Source of the DNA: a virus
DNA length: 64,000 nucleotides
UHGV virus genome: UHGV-0179803
Strand: one strand, 5' to 3'
Part shown: positions 15,476-42,178 of the stretch, in pieces
How the letters are laid out: every line of letters begins with the position of its first letter
Numbering within the stretch: position 1 is the stretch's first letter
Program-made: the position numbers and the translations under genes
The notes under the pieces: model-generated
Database searches by the model: none
What the model was told of the DNA's origin: nothing
What the model saw: the letters and a program-made list of their open reading frames with translations, nothing else

Positions 15476-15476
15476 C

Positions 15477-23953: not shown

Positions 23954-23969
23954 GATGAACCTCCTCAGA

Positions 23970-23997: not shown

Positions 23998-24012
23998 GTG
24001 AGTTAGTCTGTC

Positions 24013-25584: not shown

Positions 25585-26079
25585 AGTTAAGCGCACCTCA
25601 GTCAGTTAATCTGCATCTCGTTTCGATGAAGTAAATATACCAAAATTGGAGCATCATGTCAACAACTATTTTATGGCGACATGCAAAAGACACCACAAAA
25701 TAGGGTGACACACACCACTATAGCCAGTATGACCAACCATACATCCAAAGGTTTCATAATCAGTAATCAGACCTCACTGGAAAGTTGAGATAATGCTTAA
25801 GAGCAGGATTAAGACACCACCGATCACAGTGTACAGGAAAAGCCCACCTGCGGCATCGACCAGTTCTTGTACAAAGTGGTTTTCAAATTGCTTATCACGC
25901 AACCGAAAGAACAAATCTATTAACTTTTTCATAGGCTTACATCAGAAATAAGAAAGTGTATAATAACATTTCCAACCCAGTGGCAGCATATACCATGAGC
26001 AATATAGCAATAGCTGCCATGAGAACATCATCTTTTGTCATAACAGGCATCCTCATTCTATGCACCTCTCTTGATAAAT

Positions 26080-26155
26080 TGGCGGCCCCTACTGGACTTG
26101 AACCAGCAACCAAGCGATTATGAGTCACCCGCTCTACCTGTTGAGCTAAAGGGCC
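26080..26155 (-). tRNA. tRNA with anticodon CAU (Met elongator/initiator, or Ile2 if lysidine-modified)
   Basis: Hand-folded cloverleaf: acceptor GGCCCUU/AGGGGCC, D-stem GCUC/GAGC, anticodon loop CUCAUAA, T-arm GGUUCAAGUCC, encoded CCA end. Confidence 0.7.
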
Positions 26156-26156
26156 G

Positions 26157-26232
26157 TGGTGCTGATGGAGGGACTCGAACCCACAACCTTTTGATTACAA
26201 ATCAATTGCACTACCGTTTGTGCTACATCAGC
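26157..26232 (-). tRNA. tRNA-Thr (anticodon UGU), tentative
   Basis: Acceptor GCUGAUG/CAUCAGC, discriminator A, encoded CCA, anticodon loop UUUGUAA, T-loop UUCGAGU. One mismatch each in the anticodon and T stems, so identity needs confirmation. Confidence 0.55.
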
Positions 26233-26248
26233 AAACTGCTTATGATAG

Positions 26249-26323
26249 TGGTATTCGGAGCGGGAGTCGAACCCGCATCTACAGCTTAGGAGGCCGCTAT
26301 TCTATCCGTTGAACTATCCGAAC
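26249..26323 (-). tRNA. tRNA-Arg (anticodon CCU, reads AGG)
   Basis: Acceptor GUUCGGA/UCCGAAU, anticodon loop CUCCUAA, perfect T-arm GCGGG-UUCGACU-CCCGC, encoded CCA. Confidence 0.65.
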
Positions 26324-26409
26324 GTTGTTCTCTTGTCTATGTGGTGTATTTTATACTCAAATTGACGTCCCTGTCAACAAAATTCTTACCTGTCTGATCT
26401 TTGTTTTTA

Positions 26410-26595
26410 TCAATGTAAGAAGTCTCTGTCTCCCAGGACGATTGCTTCGATATATTCATCATGGTGCTGAACAGAAGCCAGATGCAGATGGATATAAGCA
26501 TCGCCGTAGCCGAAGAAGCGACGATGAGCTTTAGCCCATGCACGTAAACCTTTCCACATCACGAAGTGGTAAAGTTGTCTGATTTTATTTTTCAT
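26410..26595 (-). CDS. Hypothetical small protein (61 aa)
   Basis: ATG preceded by GAGGAG with 7-nt spacing. Confidence 0.4.
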   Translation of the reverse strand: MKNKIRQLYHFVMWKGLRAWAKAHRRFFGYGDAYIHLHLASVQHHDEYIEAIVLGDRDFLH

Positions 26596-27076
26596 GTAAG
26601 TACTCCTCTGGTTCAGCTTCAGGTTCTGGATAGTCCTCTATAACGAGAGGCCAGTTATTCTCTTTCGCTTTACGTTTGTACATCACTTCATCCCTGGCGA
26701 ACTCCAGTTGATTCTTAGCCGGGATACCTGCTGGATTATCATCAATCCAGATATCTGGGAAGATGCCCATCGTAGCCATATAAGCTGCTTTCTGTATACC
26801 AGAAGTATAGAAGATATCCATACCCAGTTTTTCAGCCCACATCTGAATGTCACAGCTGTCCTGTTCAGGGAAACGGAATGTGACAAAGCAGCAATACCAA
26901 CCAGCCTTCTGCAATGCGCCCACAAAAGAGGCGAAGATAAAAGGCTCTGCATTGAACGTATTATCGAAGTCAAATGCAGCAACTTTCGTGCCATTACGTG
27001 TTTCAAACGGCAGAGAAGTGGTTAAGCTACTGTAATCAAAAATATCCCCACTAACGTCATCATAGCCTGAATCCAT
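26585..27076 (-). CDS. HAD-superfamily phosphatase (nucleotidase or polynucleotide 3'-phosphatase-like)
   Basis: RBS AAGGAG. HAD motif I VAAFDFDNTF (DxDxT) and motif IV WIDDNP. Confidence 0.6.
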   Translation of the reverse strand: MDSGYDDVSGDIFDYSSLTTSLPFETRNGTKVAAFDFDNTFNAEPFIFASFVGALQKAGWYCCFVTFRFPEQDSCDIQMWAEKLGMDIFYTSGIQKAAYMATMGIFPDIWIDDNPAGIPAKNQLEFARDEVMYKRKAKENNWPLVIEDYPEPEAEPEEYLHEK

Positions 27077-27086
27077 AGCCTACTCC

Positions 27087-27356
27087 TTATTTTTTCAAGA
27101 ATTTGTATGCAAAAGCATGTGTGTTTTCCGCAGCTTCAATGATACAACGAATCTTGCGATCCAGTTCTTCATTTTCTTTTACCAGCTGCGGGATCTCTTT
27201 GGCATGAACTGTGAACTCGGCAAAGTCCATATCCAAGATCTGGTTGATACGGGCATCATTAGCTTTGGCTTGCATATTCATACGATATGCAGCAGACAGA
27301 CCTTCCTGTACCATCGACAGGCCGTATTCAAGGTAGCGTAACTGTTCTTTAGTCAT
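27087..27356 (-). CDS. Hypothetical protein
   Basis: Start assigned to internal ATG (MTKEQLRYLEY..); the upstream region has no RBS. Confidence 0.4.
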   Translation of the reverse strand: MTKEQLRYLEYGLSMVQEGLSAAYRMNMQAKANDARINQILDMDFAEFTVHAKEIPQLVKENEELDRKIRCIIEAAENTHAFAYKFLKK

Positions 27357-27464
27357 CGTAGTGGTCCTTCGTTCTGTTGATGAGGTATTTATACCACAAC
27401 GTACGGGGTATGTCAACAGTTTTCTTTCAATAAATCAGTTGTGTAGGAAAAGACAAAAATAAAC

Positions 27465-27480
27465 CCCGCCGAAGCGGGGT
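27465..27480 (-). terminator. Terminator hairpin (CCCCGC-CGAA-GCGGGG) with U-tract on the minus strand
   Basis: Minus strand reads hairpin then TTTATTTTT. Lies downstream of the 27489 stop. Confidence 0.45.
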
Positions 27481-27488
27481 CTATGCGA

Positions 27489-27632
27489 TTAGAAGTTCAT
27501 CTGCATATATCCCATCGGATGTGCTCCTGCCATGCTTTCAGCTACTGCACCCCAATCCACGTCCATAGCATGAACCCCTAAAACTACCAAACCCATTGCA
27601 ACCAGTGCTAAAACTTCAATTCTCATTTTCAT
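27489..27632 (-). CDS. Small secreted or membrane protein (47 aa) with signal-peptide-like N-terminus
   Basis: MKMRIEVLALVAMGLVVLGVHA.. RBS GAGGGG. Confidence 0.35.
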   Translation of the reverse strand: MKMRIEVLALVAMGLVVLGVHAMDVDWGAVAESMAGAHPMGYMQMNF

Positions 27633-27642
27633 AACCCGCCCC

Positions 27643-27795
27643 TCATTTATCGAATGCACTAAGATTATCAATGCAGAAATCTTTTACTTCATTTTTGTCT
27701 GCACCTTGTACAAGGATTTCACCCGGACAAGCCTGATCCATAGAATCTGCAAAATCTTCTTTAAAGCAAGCTAAGTTGTCAATATCGTATTTCAT
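27643..27795 (-). CDS. Hypothetical small protein (50 aa)
   Basis: ATG (MKYDIDNLACF..) preceded by AAGGAG. Confidence 0.3.
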   Translation of the reverse strand: MKYDIDNLACFKEDFADSMDQACPGEILVQGADKNEVKDFCIDNLSAFDK

Positions 27796-27896
27796 GGCTG
27801 ACTCCTTATTTATCTGTTGTACTGTGCTTCTCTTCATTTGATGGAAGCATCTTAACACAACTGATCTTCCATGTCAAGAAATATTTCTACTTTCTT

Positions 27897-28509
27897 TTAG
27901 TCAAATTGTAATATCAGATCGACCAGTTTACTTGGTTCGTTGATATACTCATCTTTACCGTATGGCACAGGTCTCATTTCGTGGATAGGCTGTTCTTCTA
28001 CGTACGGTCTGATAAATTCTGCCAGCACCAGTTCCACAACCCCTGGCCCACAAGGTGATTCCAGCATTCTCCGGTGGAGTTTGGGATCTCTCAGTGCCAG
28101 AAGTGGACCGTAACCATCCATTCTGCCATACAATAGATACTCCGCAGAGTGGTGGATGAAAGCCTTCTCGTAGCGTCTGCGTTGGTTTAAGGTCGCTATG
28201 ATTATCTCTGCATAGGCATCCTGTAGAGCCTTCTTAGCGTGTTGGATGTTGTTATCCCCAGACTCCAGTAAGCCTTCCAGGATTCTTACACGACTCATGT
28301 GGACCTGATTCTCACTGACGTGGGCGATAATATTCCCTGTCTGATCGAAGTTTTCCATCAGCCTCCACACGATGTTGACACTGCCTGTCTGGGATAATGA
28401 CTTGGCGTACCAGCCTTGCTTGTGGAAGTACCAGTCAGCGTCCTCCATCAGGATTTTACTGAAGTCTGCTTTCAGTTGTTCTTTGCTGTGCGGATCATTC
28501 ATTGCCATC
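27897..28509 (-). CDS. Hypothetical protein
   Basis: Long ORF; start trimmed to MAMNDPH.. to avoid a large overlap with the upstream gene. Confidence 0.45.
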
Positions 28510-29088
28510 TCCCAACAATTGAAGCAGAAGGTTGATACCTTCGTTTGGGTCATCATCCTCACCGTAGTGTTTGGCAGACATTGCATAGCCTTCACCATCC
28601 ACATACTGTTTGATGTATTTGAACAGGCTCGAACGCAGCATATCCATCCCCATCGGATCTCGCAGTAAGCGATCCAACAGTTTTGGTGCACGTTTTTCCA
28701 TCACACAAGGGCCACCGTTATTGCCACAACCATTACGGTTAGTCAGGAGGTCAACTCCGAACTGTAGCAGCTCTTTCTTGTGCTTCTCGCGTTTTCTCCA
28801 GATCTTGACGTGCATTTCGCCATCAACATCGTGGACCATGTTGCGAAGATCACTTATGCTGGGGTGCTCATTGTTCTTCAAAGCCCTTATCATTACTTTA
28901 CACTTAGTAGTGTAAGTTTCTTCCCTGTAGTACCGTGGTACTGGGAAGATATACTTCTCGAATATCATCTTGAAGGCGTTGAAGCGAGAACTGGCAAAAT
29001 AATTATCCCAGTAGTCCTTCCACTCAAATTCAAGAAAAGTATCCAGATCCCTCTGGAGATTGTTAGTAAAAAATTCTACATTGCTCAT
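28495..29088 (-). CDS. Hypothetical protein (197 aa)
   Basis: ORF in the minus-strand operon. No diagnostic motifs. Confidence 0.5.
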   Translation of the reverse strand: MSNVEFFTNNLQRDLDTFLEFEWKDYWDNYFASSRFNAFKMIFEKYIFPVPRYYREETYTTKCKVMIRALKNNEHPSISDLRNMVHDVDGEMHVKIWRKREKHKKELLQFGVDLLTNRNGCGNNGGPCVMEKRAPKLLDRLLRDPMGMDMLRSSLFKYIKQYVDGEGYAMSAKHYGEDDDPNEGINLLLQLLGDGNE

Positions 29089-29327
29089 AGCTCTACCACC
29101 GTACCTTCCAGGTCTTCTTCAATCAGGTCATCCAGCTTAACCACCTTGATAAGGCCACGACGGATGTACAGATCCATCATCTCACGATAGTTTTTGAATG
29201 GATCGTCACTGTTACTGACTACAACAACTTTATGGTCTTGACGAGCTTCTTGCCATACCAGACGGCAACGCATCAGGTGCCCCAGTACATCTTTATCCAT
29301 TTCTGGCTTACGTGCAAACATTATCAA
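29085..29327 (-). CDS. Hypothetical protein (80 aa)
   Basis: Overlapping stop/start with neighbours (translational coupling). Confidence 0.45.
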   Translation of the reverse strand: MIMFARKPEMDKDVLGHLMRCRLVWQEARQDHKVVVVSNSDDPFKNYREMMDLYIRRGLIKVVKLDDLIEEDLEGTVVEL

Positions 29328-29758
29328 TCCCCCGTAAAATATTCTTTAAGTTTTTCTGTTAAAAAGTTTTGTAATTCCTGCTCGTCGAGCTTCTCGTCAA
29401 AGTCAGCAGCAGCTGCCTCAACACACATATGATAGATCGCAATTTCAAGGTCGTCAAGCCCCAACATCAATTCGACCATCATATTTTCATCATCTGTTGG
29501 GTGAGCCGGATCAGAGATCATATCCATTGGTACGATGACTTTCCAGTCTTCTTTAGTCCCCACAGGACCTTGAATTTTACGGCTAATCTCTATCAGATGC
29601 TTGGTGTAAAAGGCTTCGTACTGAACAATCTCGTAGTTATTACGGTAGTAAACGTAGTCGAGGTAAGTACCCAGCCGAAGCTGGCATACTTCAACCCCAA
29701 ACCACTCCTTCTTCCACTGTTTTTCGCCTGAAGATTGGCATTGGCGTTTAGTCAGCAT
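29324..29758 (-). CDS. Hypothetical protein (144 aa)
   Basis: ORF in operon. Confidence 0.5.
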   Translation of the reverse strand: MLTKRQCQSSGEKQWKKEWFGVEVCQLRLGTYLDYVYYRNNYEIVQYEAFYTKHLIEISRKIQGPVGTKEDWKVIVPMDMISDPAHPTDDENMMVELMLGLDDLEIAIYHMCVEAAAADFDEKLDEQELQNFLTEKLKEYFTGD

Positions 29759-29773
29759 GGCTGGGTTCTCCTG

Positions 29774-30052
29774 TTATTGACGAGCGTATCCGCAGAGGAC
29801 GATGGTTGCATTAATTTCTGTTGCAGATAAGTCCCCATCCATAATTTGTAAAGAGAAATCTTCCAGGTCTACAGTGTAGATGCCTCCGTCATAAGAGTTA
29901 TCCTCCATGATTAGCACGTTGCGTACTTCAGCAGCCACTATGATTTCTACAATCGTACCTGGTTTAAAATTTTTGAGAGGTTTGACTACAGGTTCAAGCT
30001 CTCTTAAAGATACAGATGTTGCCATAATGTGTCTCCTATTTAACGTTTTCAA
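29774..30052 (-). CDS. Hypothetical protein (about 85-92 aa)
   Basis: ORF in operon; start uncertain (MATSVSL.. is an alternative). Confidence 0.4.
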   Translation of the reverse strand: MKTLNRRHIMATSVSLRELEPVVKPLKNFKPGTIVEIIVAAEVRNVLIMEDNSYDGGIYTVDLEDFSLQIMDGDLSATEINATIVLCGYARQ

Positions 30053-31487
30053 TCAAATCTATAGTTCTGCCAAAAGATGGCGTATAGTCTTTGTTACCAC
30101 CTTCTGTCCTAATCCAGAGCGTATTATACTTATCCCAACCGTTGCTGTCAACCTCTTTTTCAAAACCTGATTCAAGAAACAGGTCAGTAAAGATAATAAC
30201 ATCCTGAACATCAGACAGATGTTTATCCAGATATTCAAACACACAACCTGCACGAGTACCGAACGTAGACTTGATCTGGTAGTCTGGCATCTGTGCAATA
30301 TTCTGGTGAGTGTATACCTGAACATCACCAACTTCTGTTGACCAACAGAACATCGTAACTTTAAACTCTTTATACAGGCTGCACAACCCGCTGATTTCTG
30401 AAGTGATACGTTTCAGAGTCCGTGGAGAGATAGAGCCTGATACGTCGAATGCCACCACTATATCAATCGTTTTCTCCTGGTTGCGACCTGGGAGAATAAC
30501 AGACTGGCGATTGTTGATAGCCCCTCTGCTACGCAATGTGTGAGTTAAAGCACCAGAGCGACGGGCCGGACGACGATAAGTCATATCAGCTTTCCGGTGT
30601 GACAACATACGTTGACGAATCACATCCAGATAGTTGATGATAGGCTTATTGCGATTCTTGATCCACTCACGCACCTGTGCCGGACCTTCACCACCTGCCG
30701 CTTTCATAGCAGCTTCCATCATGTCACCAGAGTCCTGCATTGCTGCATCTTTCTCTGCCTGAGTCATTGCTGGTTGGTTGCCTTTTTCGTAGCCCATAGC
30801 TTCACTGAGGTTGTCAGACTGGCCTTGTCCGTCCCCCATGTGAGTATCTGTGGCTCGTAGACCACCGCCACTAGCTTTACCTGGTTGTTGCTGTTGCTGT
30901 TGTTGTCTTTCCAGGTCTGCATAAACTTTTTCAGTTATCCACCCGTGGTATTTCTTATCACAATAACAATATTCAAGAAATGCAAACGGCTGGCCTTTTT
31001 TCAGCTGTGTGCGAATCCCGTGTGGGAACATTGCACATGGCGGTTCGGCTAAATCTACCATCAGACCAGTATTAATAACGTGGTCAGCGGCCTGATTAAA
31101 CAGGTTGTGATCAGAGAAGGCTTTACCACGGCTGAGGTGATCAGCAATGATGTGACCTATCTCATGGCACAGGAGAAAAGCAACCTCTTTAAGCGTTTTA
31201 GGTGCATAGAAAGCGTCCAGCTGTTCTTTCATCTTATCATCGCACTTAGGCAGAATGATAGCACGGCGTTCCTGGCAAACACCTATGATGAACTCTGGAT
31301 TGTAGTAAATCCGCTTATGGTCTGTGGCGATAGTGTCACACCATGTGTGGTTCTCAACAAATTGTAAGCCTGACAGGAGCACACCGTAGAAGCTCAATCT
31401 TTCCATGAGCCACATGCGAGCACCCTGAAGCATACGTAGAGCTTCTGGTTTCTGTGCTAAAATCAGTTCTGAACTTCTTGCGTCCAC
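30036..31487 (-). CDS. Two-domain protein: N-terminal HExxH zinc-metallopeptidase-like domain plus C-terminal von Willebrand factor A (VWA) domain
   Basis: GTG start 5 nt after GGAGGA. HEIGH motif (..FLLCHEIGHIIADHL..). VWA MIDAS motif DxSGS (..VVAFDVSGSISP..). Gln-rich linker (QQQQQQQ). Confidence 0.7.
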   Translation of the reverse strand: MDARSSELILAQKPEALRMLQGARMWLMERLSFYGVLLSGLQFVENHTWCDTIATDHKRIYYNPEFIIGVCQERRAIILPKCDDKMKEQLDAFYAPKTLKEVAFLLCHEIGHIIADHLSRGKAFSDHNLFNQAADHVINTGLMVDLAEPPCAMFPHGIRTQLKKGQPFAFLEYCYCDKKYHGWITEKVYADLERQQQQQQQPGKASGGGLRATDTHMGDGQGQSDNLSEAMGYEKGNQPAMTQAEKDAAMQDSGDMMEAAMKAAGGEGPAQVREWIKNRNKPIINYLDVIRQRMLSHRKADMTYRRPARRSGALTHTLRSRGAINNRQSVILPGRNQEKTIDIVVAFDVSGSISPRTLKRITSEISGLCSLYKEFKVTMFCWSTEVGDVQVYTHQNIAQMPDYQIKSTFGTRAGCVFEYLDKHLSDVQDVIIFTDLFLESGFEKEVDSNGWDKYNTLWIRTEGGNKDYTPSFGRTIDLIENVK

Positions 31488-31538
31488 TACGATCCTCCAA
31501 AGGGGGCAAAAGCCCCCTCGTTGTTATTTTCTGCTATC

Positions 31539-32573
31539 TTACACCTTTTTAAAGATGTTTGCAAGCTCTGCCATCGTCATGTTAGTCGTTTTCATGAGGT
31601 CAGTCATCGCCTTTTCCATCACAGGTGTAACTACCATGAAGTTGCCTTTGACAAAACCTTTATCGCGATCAGCCACCAGGATAGATTTAAGGCCGTCACC
31701 CAGACGTTCACCAGTCAGTGCACAACATTTTTTCTGGTACACTTGTTTGAACTGTCCGAATGTCAGATCTACTTTCATGCCTATATCATAGAAGACCTGA
31801 CAGTAGAAAGCGTAAGCCTGAGCAATAGCCACATCTGGTGGTAATGCCTGAGGTAGCGGTTTAGGCTCTTCAGGAGCGTCTGTACGGTCCTCAACAACTT
31901 CGGCTTGTACTTCTTCAACTTCAGCCGTTTCTTCAACCACAGGCTCACTCATGATGTTCCTGACATGTTTTTCAGCACGTTTGTCCATGAACTCACGTAA
32001 TTCCTGTGCAGGTGTCATAGGTTCTTCCTCCTTAGCTTCAATTTGTTGCAAAAGTGCTTCACCACCCAACAGGCCAAGTTCAGCTTTGTCATCTTCAGAG
32101 CCATATTGGCGCATGAAGTTTTCGAAAGAGTATTCTTCTTTCAAGGCCTCCATACTTTCTTCTGACAGGTGTAGCATCATCTGCTGAACAATTTTACGGT
32201 CAGTACGGTCTTTAATAAGGACCGCATTCTTCTTATCAACCAGCGAATCCTTGAGTTCATTACACCGTGTTCCGACCACACAGCAGTTATGCAGAGCATA
32301 CGCCCCGTCATCGTCGATACGCTCTAACGATGGGTAGAACGGGTTGCCTAAACCGTTCTCGTCAGTGTGCATATCAAAAGGAAGAAGAGTGTAGTCACAT
32401 ACACCGTCCCCAAGTAATTTCTTACCGAAGAACAGCCACTCTTCCCACGTCAACGTAAACATGATGCCCCTTTTCTTAGCATTACCTTGTTTACGTTTAT
32501 ACTTTTTATTCAGCTTCTCCAACTCCCACGGTTGATAGCAGCCCTCCAGATATTGAATGTGTGTCTTAGCCAT
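31539..32573 (-). CDS. Hypothetical protein (344 aa) with acidic central linker and duplicated terminal motif
   Basis: Segments ..KKRGIMFTLTWEEW..GKKLLGDGVCDYTLLPF.. and ..KKCCALTGERLGDGLKSILVADRDKGF..GNFMVVTP.. look like an internal repeat. Confidence 0.5.
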   Translation of the reverse strand: MAKTHIQYLEGCYQPWELEKLNKKYKRKQGNAKKRGIMFTLTWEEWLFFGKKLLGDGVCDYTLLPFDMHTDENGLGNPFYPSLERIDDDGAYALHNCCVVGTRCNELKDSLVDKKNAVLIKDRTDRKIVQQMMLHLSEESMEALKEEYSFENFMRQYGSEDDKAELGLLGGEALLQQIEAKEEEPMTPAQELREFMDKRAEKHVRNIMSEPVVEETAEVEEVQAEVVEDRTDAPEEPKPLPQALPPDVAIAQAYAFYCQVFYDIGMKVDLTFGQFKQVYQKKCCALTGERLGDGLKSILVADRDKGFVKGNFMVVTPVMEKAMTDLMKTTNMTMAELANIFKKV

Positions 32574-32710
32574 AGCAAATGTCCTTGCTTGTGTTTATGT
32601 AAGGCGAACATTAGCATGAAAATTAATTCTTGTCAACTGAAAAATGTTGTTGACTTTTGGTTCATCTTGATCTATTCTTCGCCAATAACAGAACGAGAGA
32701 GGAACCTTTC

Positions 32711-33607
32711 ATGTTTGAGCATCATATTACACCATTTGACCCTATGAGTCAAGCCCCAACAGATGTAGGAACAATACTTTCTTCTTTGTATGAGAGTATC
32801 CTGTACCGTCGCAGACTATTTACAGCTTGCCATCCATTCTACAACTTCATAGCAAACGCGATCAATACCACACTCAACAGTGCAGGCTTTGACGATTTCC
32901 ACTGGGTCTTCACTAAAGAAGACAAACCGGACAAGGTTTTTGTAGGCAGCTTCAGCATGGAGATCAATAAGGCTGTGTCATGGCAGCGTGCAGGTTGTGT
33001 CATGTTCCGTTTCCAACAAGGTTTTGCCTCTATAGCGGAGCATCCTTCTTTTATGAACGGCATTGAAGGTGGAGAGAAAGGTTTCTTCAAAATGCTTGCA
33101 AAAGTATTTGACATGCAGCCTTTTATGATATATGTTTATTATAGCCTGAATGGCAGGAGCGTATGCTACTCTTCAGATATCTCTATTGATCTGCTTGACT
33201 TGCCATACGTTTTCTGCTACGATGGAAAAATAACTAGCAGGATGACTGGTAATCAGAATGTAGCAGACTTCGCCCCGTTGCAGATTAAGTCACGGGAATA
33301 CACAGCTTTGGGTGGAGAACCTGTTATGTTGATCAACAAGTATCACACAACAGGGGAATTTCTGATGTTCCAGTACCGGAAGCGGGATAGCCGGATGGAG
33401 TATGCCCGTGTCAGCTCAGACACTCTGGAGTCATTTCAGGGTGAGGATGGTAGCTATACAGCTGAATCTCTTGAAGTTATGGAAGCGATGGGAATAAAAG
33501 ATCAATTATGGGTTGACAACCTGTTGGGTAATGAGTTAGAATTACTACGTCCTATGTTGAAGTGGGACGAAGAAACTAAAGCTAAATACGAAGGAGACTT
33601 CCAATGA
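32711..33607 (+). CDS. Hypothetical protein (298 aa), first gene of the plus-strand replication-region operon
   Basis: ATG 32711 after AGAGAGG. Divergent from the minus-strand operon. Confidence 0.5.
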   Translation: MFEHHITPFDPMSQAPTDVGTILSSLYESILYRRRLFTACHPFYNFIANAINTTLNSAGFDDFHWVFTKEDKPDKVFVGSFSMEINKAVSWQRAGCVMFRFQQGFASIAEHPSFMNGIEGGEKGFFKMLAKVFDMQPFMIYVYYSLNGRSVCYSSDISIDLLDLPYVFCYDGKITSRMTGNQNVADFAPLQIKSREYTALGGEPVMLINKYHTTGEFLMFQYRKRDSRMEYARVSSDTLESFQGEDGSYTAESLEVMEAMGIKDQLWVDNLLGNELELLRPMLKWDEETKAKYEGDFQ

Positions 33608-33882
33608 AAAAACACCAGATTTTTCACGTAGGTGAAGACGCACAGGCAGATGCTGTATGGTTCGCAATGCACCACACAACGGATGACGAACTGGCTATGG
33701 GCCATGCATTCGTTAACCCTGGTGATAAACTGCCGTATCCTGGTGATTATGTTGTGGCAGCAATGGACGGTTACACTTTGTGTTTGCGGGTAACTAAAAT
33801 CTTCCTGGATCCGCGCCACAATCATCGTCTGGTTCTGGCATTTGAAGAAGCTCCTGCATATGCTCTGGGGGATGGAGAATGA
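33604..33882 (+). CDS. Hypothetical protein (92 aa)
   Basis: Overlapping stop/start (ATGA). Confidence 0.45.
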   Translation: MKKHQIFHVGEDAQADAVWFAMHHTTDDELAMGHAFVNPGDKLPYPGDYVVAAMDGYTLCLRVTKIFLDPRHNHRLVLAFEEAPAYALGDGE

Positions 33883-34157
33883 AAGTAGTTGTATTACGCA
33901 ATCTTGAACCTGTGATGCTGGATCAAATTACACTTCTGAATAAAGGTGAGTGTTTAGCTGTCTGTATCCCTGAACAAGACATAGCCTACCTGATGGGATG
34001 CTTACCGGAGAATGTGGATAAAAAAATAGCTCATTTAAAGGAAAAAGGTATAGAAGATTTATTGAAGCACGGGTATGGTGATTCTATCTTTGCAGCCGAA
34101 GAGTTCATCAATCCGTCTGAATGTGTAGCAGAATTTGAAGTGGAGATCGAAGAATGA
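33879..34157 (+). CDS. Hypothetical protein (92 aa)
   Basis: Overlapping stop/start. Confidence 0.45.
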   Translation: MKVVVLRNLEPVMLDQITLLNKGECLAVCIPEQDIAYLMGCLPENVDKKIAHLKEKGIEDLLKHGYGDSIFAAEEFINPSECVAEFEVEIEE

Positions 34158-34420
34158 AAAAAGTTGTAAACGTTTATCTGAATGCAGAAGAAGTTAAAGT
34201 TGATGGTAGCCTTTTTGAAGTTGGCGATCTGATGATTATCCACTTCGTAAAAGAGGATAAAGGATACATCTCATTGAACCTGCTGGAGTATGTTCCTGAA
34301 GAGATGATGCCTACAGTGTGTCAGGCTTTGTATGCAGGTGGTGATTCTAAACCTCTGGCAGAGCTGAATATTGGCCCTAAAAATCTGGTCATCTCTACAA
34401 CAGTAGACGTGGGAGAATGA
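34154..34420 (+). CDS. Hypothetical protein (88 aa)
   Basis: Overlapping stop/start. Confidence 0.45.
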   Translation: MKKVVNVYLNAEEVKVDGSLFEVGDLMIIHFVKEDKGYISLNLLEYVPEEMMPTVCQALYAGGDSKPLAELNIGPKNLVISTTVDVGE

Positions 34421-34791
34421 CTATGGCACAGTGGAACAAGACGCTGGATTTATCTGACTGGTGGGCAGGACTACCACTTGGGGATGGTACAATCCAGGTA
34501 TGGACTGGCAATAATGTCCACAAGTTCGCCAAACGGATAGCCCGAAAAATAGCTGAACTCTACCCACGGCAATTAAACAAAGATTGCCCAGAGTATGATT
34601 GGGTTCTTGATGATGTGGTTGATCACTTCCTGGCAATTCTCCCACCAGAGGAGTTCAACAAACAGGTTCACGCCTACATCAACGAAGAAACTGATTTTCT
34701 GGTCACACCTATAGAAGATTTCAATTATGCTATGTCTGAGCTTTACGACTGGGCAGACAGGCACAATCTATGGGTGAAAACAACTTTCTAA
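34417..34791 (+). CDS. Hypothetical protein (124 aa)
   Basis: Overlapping stop/start. Confidence 0.45.
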   Translation: MTMAQWNKTLDLSDWWAGLPLGDGTIQVWTGNNVHKFAKRIARKIAELYPRQLNKDCPEYDWVLDDVVDHFLAILPPEEFNKQVHAYINEETDFLVTPIEDFNYAMSELYDWADRHNLWVKTTF

Positions 34792-34806
34792 CACGGAGGT
34801 TGATCT

Positions 34807-35058
34807 ATGTCAAACAAATACAGAGAATTAGACTTTGACAGGGACTACGAAAAGTATTATCATAGCGGCATGAGGGGTGGATCACGCAGGTGCACCCCTG
34901 CATACTTCTACGCTAATCGGGCAATTGACCCACAAGAAGTTGTAGCTTGCAGAATGGCTTATAATTTCGACATAGCGTATGGCATCCCTGTCTTCGATGT
35001 AATGACAGAACTTGAAAACTTTGAACATACTTACGAAGTAAGAGAGGAGCTTTACTAA
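34807..35058 (+). CDS. Hypothetical protein (83 aa)
   Basis: RBS GGAGG. Confidence 0.45.
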   Translation: MSNKYRELDFDRDYEKYYHSGMRGGSRRCTPAYFYANRAIDPQEVVACRMAYNFDIAYGIPVFDVMTELENFEHTYEVREELY

Positions 35059-36251
35059 TGTCAAGAAATATTTTCGAGAGTGGGCAGATTACGGTTCGTG
35101 AATTGCCCACTATGATCAAGTTTGCCAAGCGTCACGGCAAATCTTTATTTATACTGGGTTCTCCGGGCGTTGGTAAGAGCCAGGTCATCAAGCAAACTGC
35201 CGATAAACTGTTTGGAGAACGGGAAGATAACCTGATTGATATCCGTCTGTCGGATAAAGACCCAACAGACCTGTCTGGCCTGCCTGTTCCGGTGACAGAG
35301 GAAGATGGCACTACTCGCACTGTGTTTGCCACACCTAGCTTCTGGCCTACTGACCCAGACTGGGAAGGTATTATCCTGCTGGATGAAATGAACCATGCAG
35401 ATAATTTTCTCCAGAAAGTAGCCATGCAGATCATGTTGGACCACAAATGTGGTTGCTACAAATTCCCGAAAGGTGCGGTGTTTGTAGGTGCAGGTAACCG
35501 TTCTGGTGATGGTGCAGTGCTGTCTGTGTTGGAAGCACCTCTGGCAAACCGTTTAACGATTGTAGAAGTTATCCCAGATGCCAACGTCTTCCTGGAAGAC
35601 TATGCATTCTCACGAGGTGTACATTCTTCTGTGATCGGTTATCTGAAACGCCAGCCGTCATCGATTGAGAACTATGAAGCAATGGCAGACTGCAACTGTC
35701 CTGCATTCGCCACACCTCGTTCATGGGTGACTGCTTCGGATATTATGTGGGACCTTGATCGCCATCTGGTTTCAGAAGCTGAAGCCCGTGTCTTGTTACA
35801 AGGGACGATTGGTCACACGATGATGTTGGAGATTATGACTTACCACATGAAGAAACGCAATCTGCCGGAGATTGGGGATATCTTTGCTGGGGCTGTCAAA
35901 GAGTTCAAAGGTCAGAAATCTCCAGACCTCATCTGGATTCTGGGTTCAGAAGGTTGTATTGGTTTACGCAACATGATGGCTAACATTGAAGTTGATGATG
36001 ACGAAGTGGTTAGCAGTGCTGCAAACTTCCTGGACTACTTATGGAGTAACTTCCAGAACGACAACAGAGACTTCGTATTCTCTGTGTTCAAAGCAATGAT
36101 TAGCCCGAATGCACTTGGCAATGCTATTCTGGTGAACAAAGAGCATGGTCGTGAGAAAATCATGGCTAAACTGATTAAAGCGTACCCTAACCTGATGGCT
36201 ATCGTCAAACAGTTTGGGGAAGAGTTCCGTGACTTGTTAGCTAAGGCTTAA
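35058..36251 (+). CDS. AAA+ ATPase of the MoxR/CbbQ type (AAA_5-like)
   Basis: Walker A LGSPGVGKSQ, Walker B GIILLDEMNHA, and a single AAA core followed by a helical C-terminal region, as in MoxR-family chaperone ATPases. Confidence 0.75.
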   Translation: MSRNIFESGQITVRELPTMIKFAKRHGKSLFILGSPGVGKSQVIKQTADKLFGEREDNLIDIRLSDKDPTDLSGLPVPVTEEDGTTRTVFATPSFWPTDPDWEGIILLDEMNHADNFLQKVAMQIMLDHKCGCYKFPKGAVFVGAGNRSGDGAVLSVLEAPLANRLTIVEVIPDANVFLEDYAFSRGVHSSVIGYLKRQPSSIENYEAMADCNCPAFATPRSWVTASDIMWDLDRHLVSEAEARVLLQGTIGHTMMLEIMTYHMKKRNLPEIGDIFAGAVKEFKGQKSPDLIWILGSEGCIGLRNMMANIEVDDDEVVSSAANFLDYLWSNFQNDNRDFVFSVFKAMISPNALGNAILVNKEHGREKIMAKLIKAYPNLMAIVKQFGEEFRDLLAKA

Positions 36252-36261
36252 GGAGTGCACA

Positions 36262-36630
36262 ATGGCTGCATTAGGTAAGAAACGCCGTGGTAATTTCCTG
36301 GTGGTCTTGACAGACCATCCAGAGGAAGAGTATCATTGCAGATCAACACGGGTTATCCCAGTCCAGGATCGTGAAGGTGATGAAATCTGGGATGAATTAA
36401 TGTTGACTTGTTCTGACAGTGAATATTTCTTCATCTACGTTAAAGACAAAGCAGGTTTCTTTGAAAATGATGATCTGCTGCGTTATGATATTGCAGATAT
36501 GGTAAGAGCTTGCCACAAAGACAGTGCTGAACTCTTCGGTCTGCAACTTAAGGATAAAACTTTCTTCTATCAGGACGAATGCGTGGAGATTTACAGGGAA
36601 GTGGAAGATGAATTACTCCACGATAACTGA
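36262..36630 (+). CDS. Hypothetical protein (122 aa)
   Basis: RBS AGGAG. Confidence 0.45.
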   Translation: MAALGKKRRGNFLVVLTDHPEEEYHCRSTRVIPVQDREGDEIWDELMLTCSDSEYFFIYVKDKAGFFENDDLLRYDIADMVRACHKDSAELFGLQLKDKTFFYQDECVEIYREVEDELLHDN

Positions 36631-36689
36631 TACTAATCCACAACACTTTGCCCCTCTTACTGAGGGGCTAACTGCTATGGAGCTGACCA

Positions 36690-38705
36690 ATGATTATTAA
36701 AAGTGACCATAAAGAAGCAACCATTCTCGGTAAGAGTGAAGTTACCACAGGGACAATTGCGCTGAATGCTGAGACGTTTGGCCTGATTATCAAAGGTATT
36801 TACAAAGATCCTTTACTTGCTTCCTGCCGTGAGCCTATCTTTAATGCTGTGGATGCTCATGTTGAAGCGGGTCGTAAAGATGTGCCTATCAAGATCCATA
36901 CACCAACCGACCTTGAGCCTTACTTCTCTGTACAGGACGAAGGCCTCGGCATGTCTGAAGAGACTGTACGCACAATCTTTATGACATTGGGCGACTCCAC
37001 TAAGCGTCAGAGCAACGAATTGGTGGGTGCCAAAGGTATTGGTTCGAAAGCACCTCTGAGCAAGGTGGAAGCCTTTAACGTTATAAGCGTCTATAACGGC
37101 ACAAGAAGCGAATATCTTGTCTTTATGGACAAAGGTATACCGAAAGTCACTAAAACGCGTAGCGAGCCTTCTACGCAGCATAACGGCATCACAATCAGGT
37201 TCCCTGTGAACAAAAAAGATGTGTCTGCGTATCGCCATGCAATAGCTTCATGCCTGAACTATGCTAAGTTTCCGTTTGAGGTGTCGGATCCGATCACCAC
37301 ACGGATGCTGGAGCAATTTAAAAGCAACATTGACTACACATACAAAAAAGATGGGTGGACTCTGTACATCTACCACGGCAATACTTGCTCTCTGGAAAGT
37401 CGTGTTGTGATGGGGCACCAGCCTTATCGTTCAGAGTATCTTGAATCTATGATAGATTATCCGCGTCTGGTGGTAGAGATTCCGATTGGTGATTGCGATA
37501 TCAACCCTGGCCGTGAATGGACGATTGAAGGTGATGATGATGGTGGGTTCCTTGAACAACTGAAAGCCTTTGTGGACGAAGGTATCAGTAAACGTGGTGA
37601 AGAGATTGAAGTGCTGCTGAATAAAGCCACTTCTGCTATTGAAGCTCGCCGTATCATTAAAGAGTCTGGTGGCTTCTTCTCGCGTCTGGTAGGCTGGAAG
37701 TTTATGACTGCTAAATGGAAAGCCATAATGCAGGGGCATACTGTCCCAGTTATCAGTGAGTTGCCTGTGTTTGTAGGTGGTACTCGGATTGGCGCTAACT
37801 CTCTGAAACGAGATATGTACGGACCTTCTGAGTTTTCAGCAGGTCGTAAGCTGGTACTGAATGACGCAAATGGTAAATTCAACCGGATTAAATGTAACTA
37901 TCTGGCTAATGAGACTAGTCGCAACGTCTACTATGTAGAAGACCCATACCTGTCAGAAGAGTTGGCTAAGTATGTGGACGATCCATTCTACAGTGACGTG
38001 CTGTTCCTGTTGTCTGAGCTGCCTAAGCCACCAAAAGACCAACGTCAGGCGAGCAGTACGTATCAGCCGGGTTATTTTGTCAAAAAGCTGGATGAACACG
38101 GTTGGTTCTGCCGCGAACGCATAAGCAAGCAGGATTTTAAAGATATCAAGTATTGCATCCCGTATGATGGGGATATCCAAAGAGGCCGTAGTTGGTTGGG
38201 TGAGAACAATAACATCTACCAACAGGATCCGGTAGTCTTCCGTGAGGCCTTTGGTATCCCACAGGATGAAGATGTTTACATGGTTGCTGAAAGTCGCTTG
38301 ACATGGGTGGCAGAAGATTGTAAGATTATCACAGAGGTTGATGCAAAACCTGTTCTGGAACAGGACGCCTGGAACTGGCTCTTGATGAGAGCTGCAAACA
38401 CGACAGGTTACACAAAATACAAAATGCAACTGGGTAAACTGGGTGTGAAAATGTGCATTGACCCAGAAGTAAAAGAAAACGAGTATAAGGTTCGTATGTG
38501 GATGGGATGCTACTCGTGGAAGTACAGAGATCTGGCTGACAGAGCAGATCATCTTGTGAACCTTCATGTGAAGTGTGCTCGCCGCTACATGGATGGTGTA
38601 TACCAACGCTACCCGTTGCTGAAACGCATCCATGGGGATCACTGGGATAAACCGGAAGTTATTGAATATATTGAATTAATGAAAGCTAAGAAGGAGACTG
38701 AATAA
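36690..38705 (+). CDS. GHKL-type ATPase domain protein, rIIA-like
   Basis: Bergerat-fold motifs: N-box EPIFNAVDAH, G1 box QDEGLGMS, G2 box GAKGIGSKA, in the N-terminal third of a 671-aa protein. This is the layout of phage rIIA proteins. Confidence 0.5.
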   Translation: MIIKSDHKEATILGKSEVTTGTIALNAETFGLIIKGIYKDPLLASCREPIFNAVDAHVEAGRKDVPIKIHTPTDLEPYFSVQDEGLGMSEETVRTIFMTLGDSTKRQSNELVGAKGIGSKAPLSKVEAFNVISVYNGTRSEYLVFMDKGIPKVTKTRSEPSTQHNGITIRFPVNKKDVSAYRHAIASCLNYAKFPFEVSDPITTRMLEQFKSNIDYTYKKDGWTLYIYHGNTCSLESRVVMGHQPYRSEYLESMIDYPRLVVEIPIGDCDINPGREWTIEGDDDGGFLEQLKAFVDEGISKRGEEIEVLLNKATSAIEARRIIKESGGFFSRLVGWKFMTAKWKAIMQGHTVPVISELPVFVGGTRIGANSLKRDMYGPSEFSAGRKLVLNDANGKFNRIKCNYLANETSRNVYYVEDPYLSEELAKYVDDPFYSDVLFLLSELPKPPKDQRQASSTYQPGYFVKKLDEHGWFCRERISKQDFKDIKYCIPYDGDIQRGRSWLGENNNIYQQDPVVFREAFGIPQDEDVYMVAESRLTWVAEDCKIITEVDAKPVLEQDAWNWLLMRAANTTGYTKYKMQLGKLGVKMCIDPEVKENEYKVRMWMGCYSWKYRDLADRADHLVNLHVKCARRYMDGVYQRYPLLKRIHGDHWDKPEVIEYIELMKAKKETE

Positions 38706-39922
38706 TGTCAAACTGCTCAACCGTATCTGTATACGTGCGTACTTACAAAACTCGTAACGATGCTCGTGTAGCAAAAGCAAAATACGAAAGTCGCGGCTTT
38801 CCAGTAGGTAAACCATACCTTCTTGATGGTGAATGGTGGATAGACGTACATTCCCCAGTAAGTTGCGACATTGATAATGAATTTATGGAAGTGGAATACC
38901 ACTATGCAGAGTTCCCTTCTCGTGGGGAGGCTCGTAAGTTCAAAGAGAACTGCATGGAAGGTTCCACAATTATCGACCGTGGCCCTTATGCGACTGTACC
39001 GCGTTGGGTGGTCAAATACCCTGGCGATGTAGTAGGGGTATTACACTGGGAAAATGTAAGTCCTAAAACCCTTGTTTACACCCCAGCAGAAAACGCAGTG
39101 ACTTACGATGTTGGCACTTTGGTGCCAAATAATGACCCTGTGGTGGTTATCTTCGGTAGCATGATCCAGATTATCACTCGTGAAGATACCTACACTGTAG
39201 AGTCTGAGGACAACGAAGCACTCTACAAAGAGGTATTTGCAAGAGTTAGTGCTAACGACTTCGATAGTGCTATTCAACTCATTAAGGACGCTGAAAAAGA
39301 GAGTAGTGAAGGTTATGAAGTGCTGGATGAAGAGAATCATCTTATAATGCTTGATGGTGAACTCTTCTACTACGGTGTACATCTGACTTCTACTATCGCC
39401 AAACGTATTGAAAAGGATGCAGCAGAAGGTACTTTGGATGACCGCTATATTAAGTTCTTGGTCCGTCTGCTTCGTAACCCGTCTGCTAAGTCTGTAGAAA
39501 TGCTCTACGACTTTATGCAGGCAAATGATATTGACATTCTACCAGATGGTCGTATAGAATGTTTCCGTGGTGTCACCCAGCTACCTGACGGAAGTTGCGT
39601 AGACTACCATTCTGGTAAAGTCCCACAATACGAAGGTTGCTTTATCTCAATGCCTCGTAACTTTGTAGAGGATAACCCAGAGGTGGCTTGCTCTCACGGT
39701 CTGCACTGTGCAAGCGCTGAGTATGCCAAAGGTTATGGCGTGTTAACTAAAGTAGCTGTTGACCCAGCAGATGTGGTTAGCGTACCATATGACTACGATT
39801 TTGCTAAATGCCGTTGCTGCCGATTCGAAATACTCACGGCCCCTGCTAAACGTACAGAGGGTATCCCAGATGAGTATGTAGTTGACCGAGATGGCAACGT
39901 AATAGAAGAGATCTTCTTCTAA
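38705..39922 (+). CDS. Hypothetical protein (405 aa); rIIB-like by position only
   Basis: Translationally coupled (TAATG) to the rIIA-like gene. No motif evidence. Confidence 0.45.
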   Translation: MSNCSTVSVYVRTYKTRNDARVAKAKYESRGFPVGKPYLLDGEWWIDVHSPVSCDIDNEFMEVEYHYAEFPSRGEARKFKENCMEGSTIIDRGPYATVPRWVVKYPGDVVGVLHWENVSPKTLVYTPAENAVTYDVGTLVPNNDPVVVIFGSMIQIITREDTYTVESEDNEALYKEVFARVSANDFDSAIQLIKDAEKESSEGYEVLDEENHLIMLDGELFYYGVHLTSTIAKRIEKDAAEGTLDDRYIKFLVRLLRNPSAKSVEMLYDFMQANDIDILPDGRIECFRGVTQLPDGSCVDYHSGKVPQYEGCFISMPRNFVEDNPEVACSHGLHCASAEYAKGYGVLTKVAVDPADVVSVPYDYDFAKCRCCRFEILTAPAKRTEGIPDEYVVDRDGNVIEEIFF

Positions 39923-39931
39923 GGAGGAAGA

Positions 39932-41320
39932 GTGGGAGAACATACTTATGAGATTGGCACGGATGCCGCTCTCGCCGCTGTGTTATGTGGTGAAAACGTC
40001 TATATCAGCGGACCTGGCGGGACCGGGAAGACTCATCTTTTACAAGATATACAGTCTTTACTTGGCGAATCCTGTATGGTTGTTGCCCCAACAGGGGTAG
40101 CCGCGCTTAACGCGGGAGGTGTTACCGCACACAGAGCTTTTGACCTGTCAGCAGGTGTGACTGTCCCAGAAGACTTCACAGAGATTCGTTCTAAAACAGC
40201 AAAACCTCTCAAAAGTAAAGCGCTACGGACTTTAGTCATTGATGAAGTGTCTATGGTCCGTGCGGATAAGTTTGTGGAGATGGATAAGAAACTCCAGCAC
40301 CTCCGTAAAACCAGTGAACCTTTCGGAGGTTTACAGGTGATCATGTTTGGGGATTTCTACCAGGCACAACCTGTTATCTCTACGCAAGAAAGGGAGGACT
40401 ACTACAAATATTGGGATACTGACCTTTGTTTCTATACCCAATCGTGGAAAGATCTTAATCTGAAATGTGTTGCCCTTGTGGAGCAATTCAGGCAAGAGTC
40501 AATCCGGTTTGCCACAATGCTGAACTGCGTTCGTGAAGGTAGGAGAACAGGCGATGTGGTTAAAGAATTAAACTCTCGTTGTTACCACGGGGGGCAGGCC
40601 TCTGATGCTATCATCCTTTGCTCAACCAACAAAAGAGTGGAGGAGATAAACAGAGAGTTCTATGACCGTATTGATGGTGAGGAGAGGATGTATAAAGGGA
40701 CGCTGAAAGGTAAATTCCCTCCCAATCAGCTACCTGTGGAAGATTTGATGTGCCTTAAAGTGGGAATGAAAGTCATGATTGTTGCCAACGACCTTAATCC
40801 TAATCACAAAGTTCCTTGTTATGTTAACGGTTCTCGTGGCACAATATTAAAATTCTATGATGATAAGGTTGACATTGAACTAGATAATGGTACACTTGTG
40901 ACTGTACCTAAAAAGCTATGGGAAAGCTACGAATACAAACCGTCCCTGAAAATGGATTGGAAGGCTCGTAAACAGAAAAGAGTGATTGAGAGAATAACCA
41001 CAGGGTCATTTGAACAGTTGCCTTTGAAGTCTGGATACGCGTACACAATTCACAAAAGCCAGGGTCTTACGTTAGATGCCTATAACTTGGATCTTGGTAA
41101 GAGAGGCGCATTCGCAGCGGGAATGACTTATGTTGCTCTTAGTCGTGCTAAGAAAATTCAGAGCATTACCCTCTTGCGTCCTGTCAGAGAAAGTGATATT
41201 ATTGTAGACCCAAGAGTGGTACAGTTTTACGCTGATACGTTCCCGGGGTTGGATGAAAAAGTAAGAAAAGATCTTGAAGTCAAAGTTAAAAAGGAGGCCG
41301 AGAATGAGTCTACTGGCTAA
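39932..41320 (+). CDS. SF1B DNA helicase (Dda/RecD/Pif1-like)
   Basis: GTG start after AAGGAGG. Walker A ISGPGGTGKTH, Walker B LVIDEVSMV, C-terminal ..YAYTIHKSQGLTLD.. and ..VALSRAKK.. motifs. Confidence 0.8.
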   Translation: MGEHTYEIGTDAALAAVLCGENVYISGPGGTGKTHLLQDIQSLLGESCMVVAPTGVAALNAGGVTAHRAFDLSAGVTVPEDFTEIRSKTAKPLKSKALRTLVIDEVSMVRADKFVEMDKKLQHLRKTSEPFGGLQVIMFGDFYQAQPVISTQEREDYYKYWDTDLCFYTQSWKDLNLKCVALVEQFRQESIRFATMLNCVREGRRTGDVVKELNSRCYHGGQASDAIILCSTNKRVEEINREFYDRIDGEERMYKGTLKGKFPPNQLPVEDLMCLKVGMKVMIVANDLNPNHKVPCYVNGSRGTILKFYDDKVDIELDNGTLVTVPKKLWESYEYKPSLKMDWKARKQKRVIERITTGSFEQLPLKSGYAYTIHKSQGLTLDAYNLDLGKRGAFAAGMTYVALSRAKKIQSITLLRPVRESDIIVDPRVVQFYADTFPGLDEKVRKDLEVKVKKEAENESTG

Positions 41321-41627
41321 TGTGGTTAATTATGTCGCCGATATTGATACATCTGAACCACAAGATGTAACAGTGCACGACTTTACACAACGTCATAAAA
41401 ATCATGATCTTTTGTTGGTGGCAGACAGTGAGGATTATGATGTTTACCATGCTTTTGTGTTCTCTGATACTGTTTTTGAAGTAGGTCAATTCCTGACTGT
41501 TAACTTCGGAGAAGATACAGGTGTGGAAGATATTGTAACTTTCATTATCGAAGGTCTGGATTGTGTTGACGAAGACGGTACTGCGTTTGAATTGATTCTT
41601 CGTGTTGTAGAAGAGCTTGACATATAA
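41304..41627 (+). CDS. Small acidic protein
   Basis: ATG after AAAGGAGG. Highly Asp/Glu-rich. Confidence 0.45.
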   Translation: MSLLANVVNYVADIDTSEPQDVTVHDFTQRHKNHDLLLVADSEDYDVYHAFVFSDTVFEVGQFLTVNFGEDTGVEDIVTFIIEGLDCVDEDGTAFELILRVVEELDI

Positions 41628-41693
41628 TCCCAACTTTGGTAACATCAGAAGCATGAAGGGGAGTAGGTGCTCCCCACTACTAAGGAGACAGTC

Positions 41694-41984: not shown

Positions 41985-42178
41985 TGGATGTTAAAATTCT
42001 GAGCTTCAACTTAAGTGTCAGTTATGAGTGTGCTGAACAACAGTTGGCTAGTTACCTAAGACTTGGCTACAAGATCAAAGGTCAATCTCATAACGACAAA
42101 TACCTTATTTATACTTTAGTTGAAGATTCTCCAACACTCGAAGATAAAGAACGAAAACAATGTATGGGAGGCTTCTGA
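41981..42178 (+). CDS. Hypothetical small protein (65 aa)
   Basis: Overlapping stop/start. Confidence 0.4.
   Translation: MMDVKILSFNLSVSYECAEQQLASYLRLGYKIKGQSHNDKYLIYTLVEDSPTLEDKERKQCMGGF

Follow-up and report, generated by a model that had tools for sequence, protein, structure and literature searches.

The viral genome stretch analyzed here (UHGV virus genome UHGV-0179803; 64,000 nucleotides in full, positions 1..64000, referred to below as the window) encodes a MoxR-class AAA+ ATPase on its plus strand and, on its minus strand, a protein in which a zinc metallopeptidase is fused to a von Willebrand factor A (VWA) domain. We favor, with moderate confidence, a reading in which the two genes are halves of one conserved machine, a MoxR ring and a VWA adaptor carrying an active zinc peptidase, that serves as an early accessory and counters host immunity. 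For the ATPase, a counter-defense role has been demonstrated by experiment in an ortholog, as Escherichia phage Bas54 needs bas54_0063 against the defense system DS-28. The two genes are as follows.

30036..31487, minus strand: zinc metallopeptidase-VWA fusion, 483 residues, GTG start; PHROG 1314 (E=2e-109), ortholog of bas54_0055, N4 gp25 family.
35058..36251, plus strand: MoxR-class (CbbQ/NorQ-like) AAA+ ATPase, 397 residues; PHROG 1297 (E=4e-101), ortholog of bas54_0063, N4 gp24 family.

Both domains of the 483-residue protein were recognized by Pfam above threshold, the N-terminal part by DUF2201_N, described as a 'putative metallopeptidase' (E=1.7e-30, 107 bits against a cut-off of 23.2), and the C-terminal part by DUF2201, described as 'VWA-like' (E=6e-11, 42.9 bits against a cut-off of 26.4). 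Residue conservation was scored over 105 unique homologs of this protein, which have a median identity of 30% to the window protein, and over 117 homologs of the ATPase. The features of the peptidase-VWA protein are listed here.

31137..31166, minus strand: zincin active-site motif HEIGHIIADH (H108, E109, H112 and H117), with all four residues in 105/105 homologs.
31071..31097, minus strand: second invariant motif of the peptidase domain, NQAADHVIN (N131, D135 and N139), in 105/105 homologs.
30768..30905, minus strand: polyglutamine and glycine-rich insertion in the peptidase domain, residues 195-240, predicted to be disordered and differing in length among homologs.
30039..30470, minus strand: minimal VWA domain with a complete metal ion-dependent adhesion site (MIDAS), namely D348-x-S350-x-S352 (DVSGS, 30432..30446), T411 (30255..30257) and D435 (30183..30185).

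Four of the MIDAS residues (D348, S350, S352 and T411) are found in every one of the 105 homologs and the fifth, D435, in 104. The NQAADHVIN motif probably contributes to metal or substrate binding. The AlphaFold2 (AF2) model of the protein has a predicted local distance difference test score (pLDDT) of 82, which drops below 50 at residues 201-208 and 218-224. In Foldseek searches the VWA of NorD was among the structure matches for the phage VWA domain, and no solved zincin structure was recovered for the N-terminal domain, so the peptidase assignment draws on the Pfam profile together with the motif. A single-sequence search of the protein against PDB sequences returned nothing, and a profile brought no improvement. 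In GenBank and PHROG 1314, members of this family are widely misannotated, routinely as 'HNH endonuclease' and otherwise as 'anti-sigma factor', 'DNA repair ATPase' and 'homing endonuclease', while one ATPase homolog is labeled 'ribosomal protein uS19' and the 83-residue gene upstream of the ATPase is labeled 'ATPase'; these wrong names are propagated annotation errors.

The ATPase has the full set of motifs expected of an AAA+ protein, and their residues are nearly invariant.

35157..35180, plus strand: Walker A, GSPGVGKS, with the translation checked; K40 in 116/117 homologs.
35370..35387, plus strand: Walker B, IILLDE; D109 in 117/117 and E110 in 116/117 homologs.
35496..35720, plus strand: stretch holding the putative sensor-1 N147 (35496..35498), arginine finger R165 (35550..35552) and sensor-2 R221 (35718..35720).
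35280..35330, plus strand: predicted beta-hairpin insert after helix 2, residues 75-91, from the secondary structure of the AF2 model.
35442..35471, plus strand: second predicted beta-hairpin, residues 129-138, from the same model.
35910..36248, plus strand: C-terminal helical extension, residues 285-397 (AF2 helices 289-396), beyond the CbbQ/NorQ core of ~255-267 residues.

N147 and R165 occur in all 117 homologs and R221 in 116, and the roles given to these three residues are those suggested by their position in the AAA+ fold. Under the established classification of AAA+ proteins, the two predicted hairpins mark the MoxR/dynein/midasin clade, to which the model would assign this protein. The AF2 model (pLDDT 91) has its best solved-structure matches in CbbQ2 (6l1q) and NorQ (9qh4/9qh8) at E ~5e-8 by Foldseek, including chains of the NorQ-NorD VWA complex. 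These alignments to CbbQ/NorQ span only ~280 columns; the C-terminal extension is aligned in at least ~75% of the ATPase homologs. A profile built from 70 family members matched midasin AAA domains in the PDB at E=7e-20, while the single sequence gave matches at the level of the P-loop only. Against Pfam, nothing scored above threshold for AAA_5, AAA_3 or CbbQ_C, with AAA_14 at 17.1 bits and bpMoxR at 16.1 bits (cut-off 27), and NCBIfam had no match for either protein of the pair. AAA_3/AAA_5 domains (PF07726/PF07728) are, however, present in the more distant homologs (E 1e-44 to 1e-36), one of which is named a MoxR family ATPase. Because the homologs carry these domains and the family profile matches midasin, the protein is a divergent MoxR subfamily rather than a non-member. 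PADLOC returned only a 15-bit partial match for the ATPase, which is thus not a known defense-system protein.

MoxR-like ATPases and VWA proteins also form metal-insertion systems, namely NorQD, CobST and BchID, and the pair could in principle be an auxiliary metabolic, ATP-driven metal-insertion chaperone of the chelatase-like CobS/CobT type. A weak PHROG match points the same way (PHROG 5298, 'cobalamin biosynthesis protein', 79 residues, E=6e-5). We consider this very improbable, since chelatases do not contain an HExxH peptidase domain, which is invariant here, the neighborhood encodes no target enzyme, and neither Pfam nor NCBIfam gave a chelatase match; CobS/CobT was rejected as a candidate.

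The two genes are near-obligate companions in viral contigs. Linkage was determined in two independent samples, one collected through the VWA protein (IMG/VR, 39 loci) and one through the ATPase (80 loci). In 38 of the 39 VWA-found loci the ATPase lies within 10 kb. The ATPase-found loci are all just 28-35% identical to the query, and 71 of the 80 contain the peptidase-VWA gene, a proportion that becomes 55/57 among those with at least 4 kb of downstream sequence. Where found in this second sample, the partner is always downstream on the same strand and usually less than 650 nt away. The family is large: in a library of 1.84 billion, 19,379 cluster representatives match at E<=1e-3. Among GenBank phage records the ATPase is present in 813 and the peptidase-VWA protein in 516, and phages with the pair families include V5-like, Seunavirus, Certrevirus, N4-like, RaK2-like and phiKZ-like members. 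A scan of 185,579 species genomes found just 14 loci, all on contigs of metagenome-assembled genomes, using degenerate patterns derived from close relatives, and is not a census.

These results support what the initial annotation had proposed for the two proteins. It had described a MoxR/CbbQ-type ATPase at 35058..36251 (plus) and a protein combining an HExxH metallopeptidase with a MIDAS-containing VWA domain at 30036..31487 (minus); both open reading frames (ORFs) were confirmed, as were the domains assigned to them. It had considered that the ATPase might instead group with virion or packaging ATPases and that the HExxH or MIDAS residues might vary among homologs, and we find that the ATPase groups with midasin and MoxR and that each residue is kept in 104 or 105 of the 105 homologs. 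Its suggestion that the two work as MoxR-VWA partners, to be doubted if the genes failed to co-occur in related genomes, agrees with the co-occurrence given above.

The functional evidence comes from Bas54 (MaxBurger, MZ501093). Gene order in the window follows Bas54 genes 0047-0071, 20 genes being shared in a colinear block, and the window phage represents a distinct species-level lineage. Identity is 72.3% for the ATPase over its full length and 60.7% for the peptidase-VWA protein, and among the neighbors it is 64% for the anti-sigma protein, 53% for rIIA, 49% for rIIB and 64% for the helicase. Bas54 has the same split, divergent layout, with the anti-sigma gene before the peptidase-VWA gene on one strand and, on the other, small genes leading to the ATPase and then rIIA, rIIB and the helicase. 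It differs in having a cell-wall hydrolase gene (bas54_0065), which the window lacks between the 122-residue gene and rIIA (36631..36689), an N6-adenine methyltransferase (bas54_0070), which is absent from the region after 41320, and genes 0052, 0053 and 0059. A second anti-DS-28 gene of Bas54, bas54_0140, has no homolog within the window.

Bas54 was studied by HIDEN-SEQ, a phage transposon-insertion sequencing method, in a November 2025 preprint (bioRxiv 10.1101/2025.11.20.689424). The two Bas54 orthologs bear the names 'MoxR ATPase' (bas54_0063) and 'putative metallopeptidase' (bas54_0055). Both were 'non-essential' on K-12, with insertions at 60/64 and 81/86 TA sites, respectively (10.1101/2025.11.20.689424). 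Along with the small, unrelated bas54_0140, the ATPase gene was 'specifically required to overcome DS-28' of E. coli CFE311, which knockouts confirmed (10.1101/2025.11.20.689424). Resampling of K-12 against CFE311 gave a log2 fold change of -7.23 (q=0) for the ATPase and -2.20 (p=0.0009, q=0.009) for the peptidase-VWA protein (10.1101/2025.11.20.689424). DS-28, a system taken from the DefensePredictor study, has two genes, one for a hypothetical protein and one for a HEPN-family nuclease (PMC13092281). The suggestion in the initial annotation of a phage counter-defense module is thereby supported by experiment on a 72%-identical ortholog in a colinear neighborhood. A search of the literature on MoxR proteins with anti-defense found no further study of the ATPase/peptidase-VWA pair.

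The same data bear on two other explanations. The pair could be a general chaperone/protease of host takeover or proteostasis, with loss of the ATPase exposing or creating a trigger of DS-28, so that no dedicated immune inhibitor would be involved. The characterized MoxR-VWA systems NorQD, CbbQO and RavA-ViaA are maturation chaperones of specific complexes, a Srd-like host-takeover gene adjoins the peptidase-VWA gene, and the breadth of the family across N4-like, V5-like and jumbo phages of many hosts suits housekeeping better than an inhibitor of a single system. We nevertheless judge such an indirect effect rather unlikely, as ~94% of the TA sites in each Bas54 ortholog accept insertions and neither gene received a fitness call on K-12, which argues that no essential complex depends on them, and as the knockout in the preprint is specifically DS-28-sensitive. 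A chaperone of virion assembly with proteolytic processing of structural proteins was proposed for the pair in group 2.2 jumbo phages, by analogy to the MoxR-VWA proteins in tail development of Acidianus two-tailed virus (PMC7824862), and the pair does occur in phages with complex virions. This appears improbable for the window phage, given that the Bas54 orthologs are non-essential for plaques while the Bas54 structural genes score as essential, and that early/replication genes, not the structural module, surround the pair in the window, in Bas54 and in Murica.

If the two proteins do form one counter-defense machine, its action can be outlined on the model of NorQ-NorD, for which engagement of the VWA partner by a MoxR ring is structurally established (PMC13036017). 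The 397-residue ATPase would most likely form a hexameric ring, for which the 483-residue protein would be the VWA adaptor, and the ring would then act either on this adaptor or on a target bound at its MIDAS. The MIDAS may bind an acidic residue of the target protein, or of the ring, and the N-terminal zinc peptidase would cut the target after the ATPase has remodeled either the adaptor or the target. Such a machine would be made early in infection, would be dispensable on a defense-poor laboratory host, and would neutralize host immunity.

A more specific version, which we offer tentatively as possible, is that the pair is an energy-dependent anti-immunity protease, in which the MIDAS captures defense proteins (the HEPN nuclease of DS-28 or its partner, for instance), the ring uses ATP to unfold or present them, and the fused zinc peptidase destroys them. 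Since N4-like, V5-like and many jumbo phages have the pair among their core genes, this proteolytic counter-defense machine would in that case be widely conserved and perhaps aimed at more than one target. We know of no proteolytic counter-defense machine of this class that has been mechanistically described for phages. Few modules of lytic phages that lack an assigned function are as widely conserved as this pair, and its strict catalytic conservation, its dispensability in the laboratory and the need for one of its members against a HEPN-nuclease defense make an ATP-powered anti-immunity protease a concrete, testable hypothesis.

In the window the ATPase and peptidase-VWA ORFs are separated by 3.57 kb on opposite strands and belong to two operons that diverge from a common intergenic region. 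The minus-strand operon begins with a 344-residue Srd-like 'anti-sigma' gene and continues with the peptidase-VWA gene. On the plus strand, six small genes precede the ATPase, and the operon continues with a 122-residue gene, rIIA, rIIB and a Dda/Pif1-type helicase. With rIIA, rIIB and this helicase directly 3' of it, the ATPase lies in a neighborhood of early/replication type. The remaining features of the locus are as follows.

32574..32710: divergent intergenic region of 137 bp in which both operons start, defined from the sequence and the ribosome-binding site (RBS) before the ATG at 32711.
31539..32573, minus strand: Srd-like 'anti-sigma factor' gene, 344 residues; PHROG 3118 and 1400, 64% identity to bas54_0056.
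31501..31518: hairpin rich in G+C (AGGGGGC-TTTT-GCCCCCT), lying past the end of the anti-sigma-like gene and before the GGAGGA RBS that serves the peptidase-VWA gene.
34807..35058, plus strand: 83-residue gene (ortholog of bas54_0062, PHROG 13164), its stop codon overlapping the start of the ATPase as TAATG.
36262..36630, plus strand: 122-residue gene directly 3' of the ATPase; PHROG 12370 (E=3.5e-40), 57% identity to bas54_0064.

The small genes flanking both partners match only phage families of unknown function, and the initial annotation was therefore right to call them unannotatable, just as it was right to place the partners less than 4 kb apart on opposite strands in two divergent operons. 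The split is not a special design, however, and the pair is less novel than the annotation implied. The divergent split is common to Vequintavirus (Murica and Bas54), Seunavirus-like loci and other loci down to 38-43% identity, and in these lineages the anti-sigma gene is always immediately upstream of the peptidase-VWA gene (the same order in loci L010, L012 and L021). In Certrevirus (CR9) and all more distant lineages the ATPase and VWA genes are adjacent and co-directional. The Certrevirus loci have the pair as the sole genes in common with the window neighborhood, and it thus travels as one unit; the anti-sigma-like gene is absent near it. Ancestrally the two genes form an operon, the ATPase first and the peptidase-VWA gene second, and the split is a rearrangement at the level of a clade, after which both genes were retained. 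In the Vequintavirus/Seunavirus-like lineage, including the window phage, this rearrangement placed the peptidase-VWA gene behind the Srd-like anti-sigma gene on the opposite strand. The window thus adds a divergent ortholog of confirmatory value, and the split provides a natural test of whether the two proteins need one another.

Several points weigh against one joint counter-defense machine. On CFE311 the peptidase-VWA gene was depleted ~4.6-fold compared with ~150-fold for the ATPase, the DS-28 follow-up in the preprint covered only the ATPase and bas54_0140, and the ATPase may act largely without its partner. The phenotypes are preprint data on a 72%-identical ortholog in another phage. 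Binding between the ATPase and the VWA protein would follow from the analogy with NorQ-NorD, and the early timing is suggested by the neighboring genes. In its predicted secondary structure the phage VWA is minimal, and nothing in it obviously corresponds to the 'finger' with which NorD reaches into the pore of NorQ, so the mode of docking may differ. DS-28 cannot be the only target of the family, because the family is conserved far beyond the hosts likely to carry DS-28. Lastly, locus L010 (IMGVR_UViG_3300045988_163358) has the peptidase-VWA gene with no ATPase within 10 kb. This V5-like contig carries the anti-sigma and peptidase-VWA genes, in that order, at 7970..11512 (44% identity) and has no rIIA, rIIB or helicase within 10 kb, and its ATPase was either relocated or lost.

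Alternatively, the two proteins could have become functionally uncoupled in the split lineage, with the ATPase countering DS-28 alone or with another partner, such as the 83-residue gene or bas54_0140, and the peptidase-VWA protein serving some other function with the anti-sigma-like gene. Separate operons with separate regulation, the very unequal depletion on CFE311, the fixed order of the anti-sigma and VWA genes across split lineages and the state of L010 are all consistent with this. It is still an unlikely account, since both genes are kept throughout the split clade, down to 38-43% identity, the catalytic residues are intact in both proteins, and both genes are significantly depleted on the same host.

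Other observations concern the neighboring genes and the locus as a whole. The hairpin at 31501..31518 is followed by just two T, and the Murica record has a terminator annotated at the equivalent position; it could attenuate or stabilize the transcript and thereby set a lower dose of the VWA partner. The 344-residue anti-sigma-like protein (31539..32573, minus) has an acidic, low-complexity middle part, and matches Srd anti-sigma/sigma-70 decoy families as well as PHROG 3118, which is labeled 'HNH endonuclease'. The first gene of the plus-strand operon (32711..33607, plus) matches PHROG 12338 of unknown function, has no Pfam match, and is 28% identical to a Bas54 'putative 1-3 fucosyltransferase'. 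The TTG start listed for it at 32657 is probably wrong, as the ATG at 32711 carries a GAGAGGAA RBS. A scan for sigma-70 promoters was at background, with 36 sites found against 35 expected, and the promoter-like site at 32650..32678 in the divergent intergenic region is a consensus match only. A perfect sigma-70 consensus (TTGACA-17 nt-TATAAT, 12/12) occurs at 30123..30151 on the minus strand in the 3'-terminal part of the peptidase-VWA gene, points toward the small genes that follow (from 29774..30052 onward), and is a lead only given that overall site density equals background. The GC skew changes sign at ~24 kb and ~32.6 kb, matching the minus-strand block (24-32.6 kb) between plus-strand blocks.

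The Dda/Pif1-type helicase (39932..41320, plus) is the ortholog of bas54_0068, which had a log2 fold change of -6.32 (q=0) on the clinical strain CFE311, near the depletion of the ATPase, and may be a further conditionally required or anti-defense gene; it is not discussed in the available passages of the preprint. In Extended Data Table 8 of the preprint, sheet S6 (K-12 against CFE303) has the CFE311 console line and numbers identical to those of S7, and the supplement file as stored thus seems to lack the Bas54 results for CFE303. The exact ATPase sequence is also present on a 139,523-bp metagenomic contig (ENA ERZ1034815 NODE_8) with identical gene order, in keeping with a full V5-like genome. 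A megablast search of the 8-kb region against GenBank phage records gave no match, and all relatedness to those phages is thus at the protein level.

Among known systems, the ternary MoxR-vWA conflict systems with VMAP, FtsH or beta-propeller components (Kaur et al. 2020, PMC7159879) resemble the window pair in having a MoxR-vWA core in biological conflict, with a vWA that is sometimes fused to a peptidase. They differ in being host-side, in occurring in multicellular bacteria and in being defined by the third component. The initial annotation had alluded to conflict modules of this type, and the pair is not one of them, as Pfam, PHROGs and PADLOC found no third component in neighboring genes and the bpMoxR score was 16 bits against 27. 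The NorQ-NorD and CbbQ-CbbO maturation chaperones of bacteria share the two-component design of an AAA+ ring and a MIDAS-VWA protein and include the closest solved structures to the ATPase. Identity to them is only 13-19%, however, and the phage ATPase carries ~110 additional residues as a helical domain at its C terminus, while the phage VWA is fused to a zinc peptidase where the VWA of NorD/CbbO has its own N-terminal domain. The bacterial systems have a metalloenzyme client, whereas the phage pair has none.

Closer still are systems already recognized in phages, which make the window pair a new, divergent member of a known module and its novelty modest. A MoxR AAA+ ATPase paired with a metallopeptidase-vWA protein was described in group 2.2 jumbo phages (Iyer et al. 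2021, PMC7824862). This pair likewise joins a MoxR ATPase with a vWA bearing an N-terminal metallopeptidase, and RaK2-like and other jumbo phages are among our matches. Its proposed role in virion assembly contrasts with the dispensable, conditionally required counter-defense role to which the Bas54 data and the window context point. In N4-like phages gp24 (AAA ATPase) and gp25 (vWFA) are core genes listed as of 'unknown function' (PMC2784036). Both protein families are shared with the window at 22-32% identity, and in the N4-like phages the ATPase gene precedes the VWA gene on the same strand, near-adjacent and co-directional, whereas in the window the same two genes are split.

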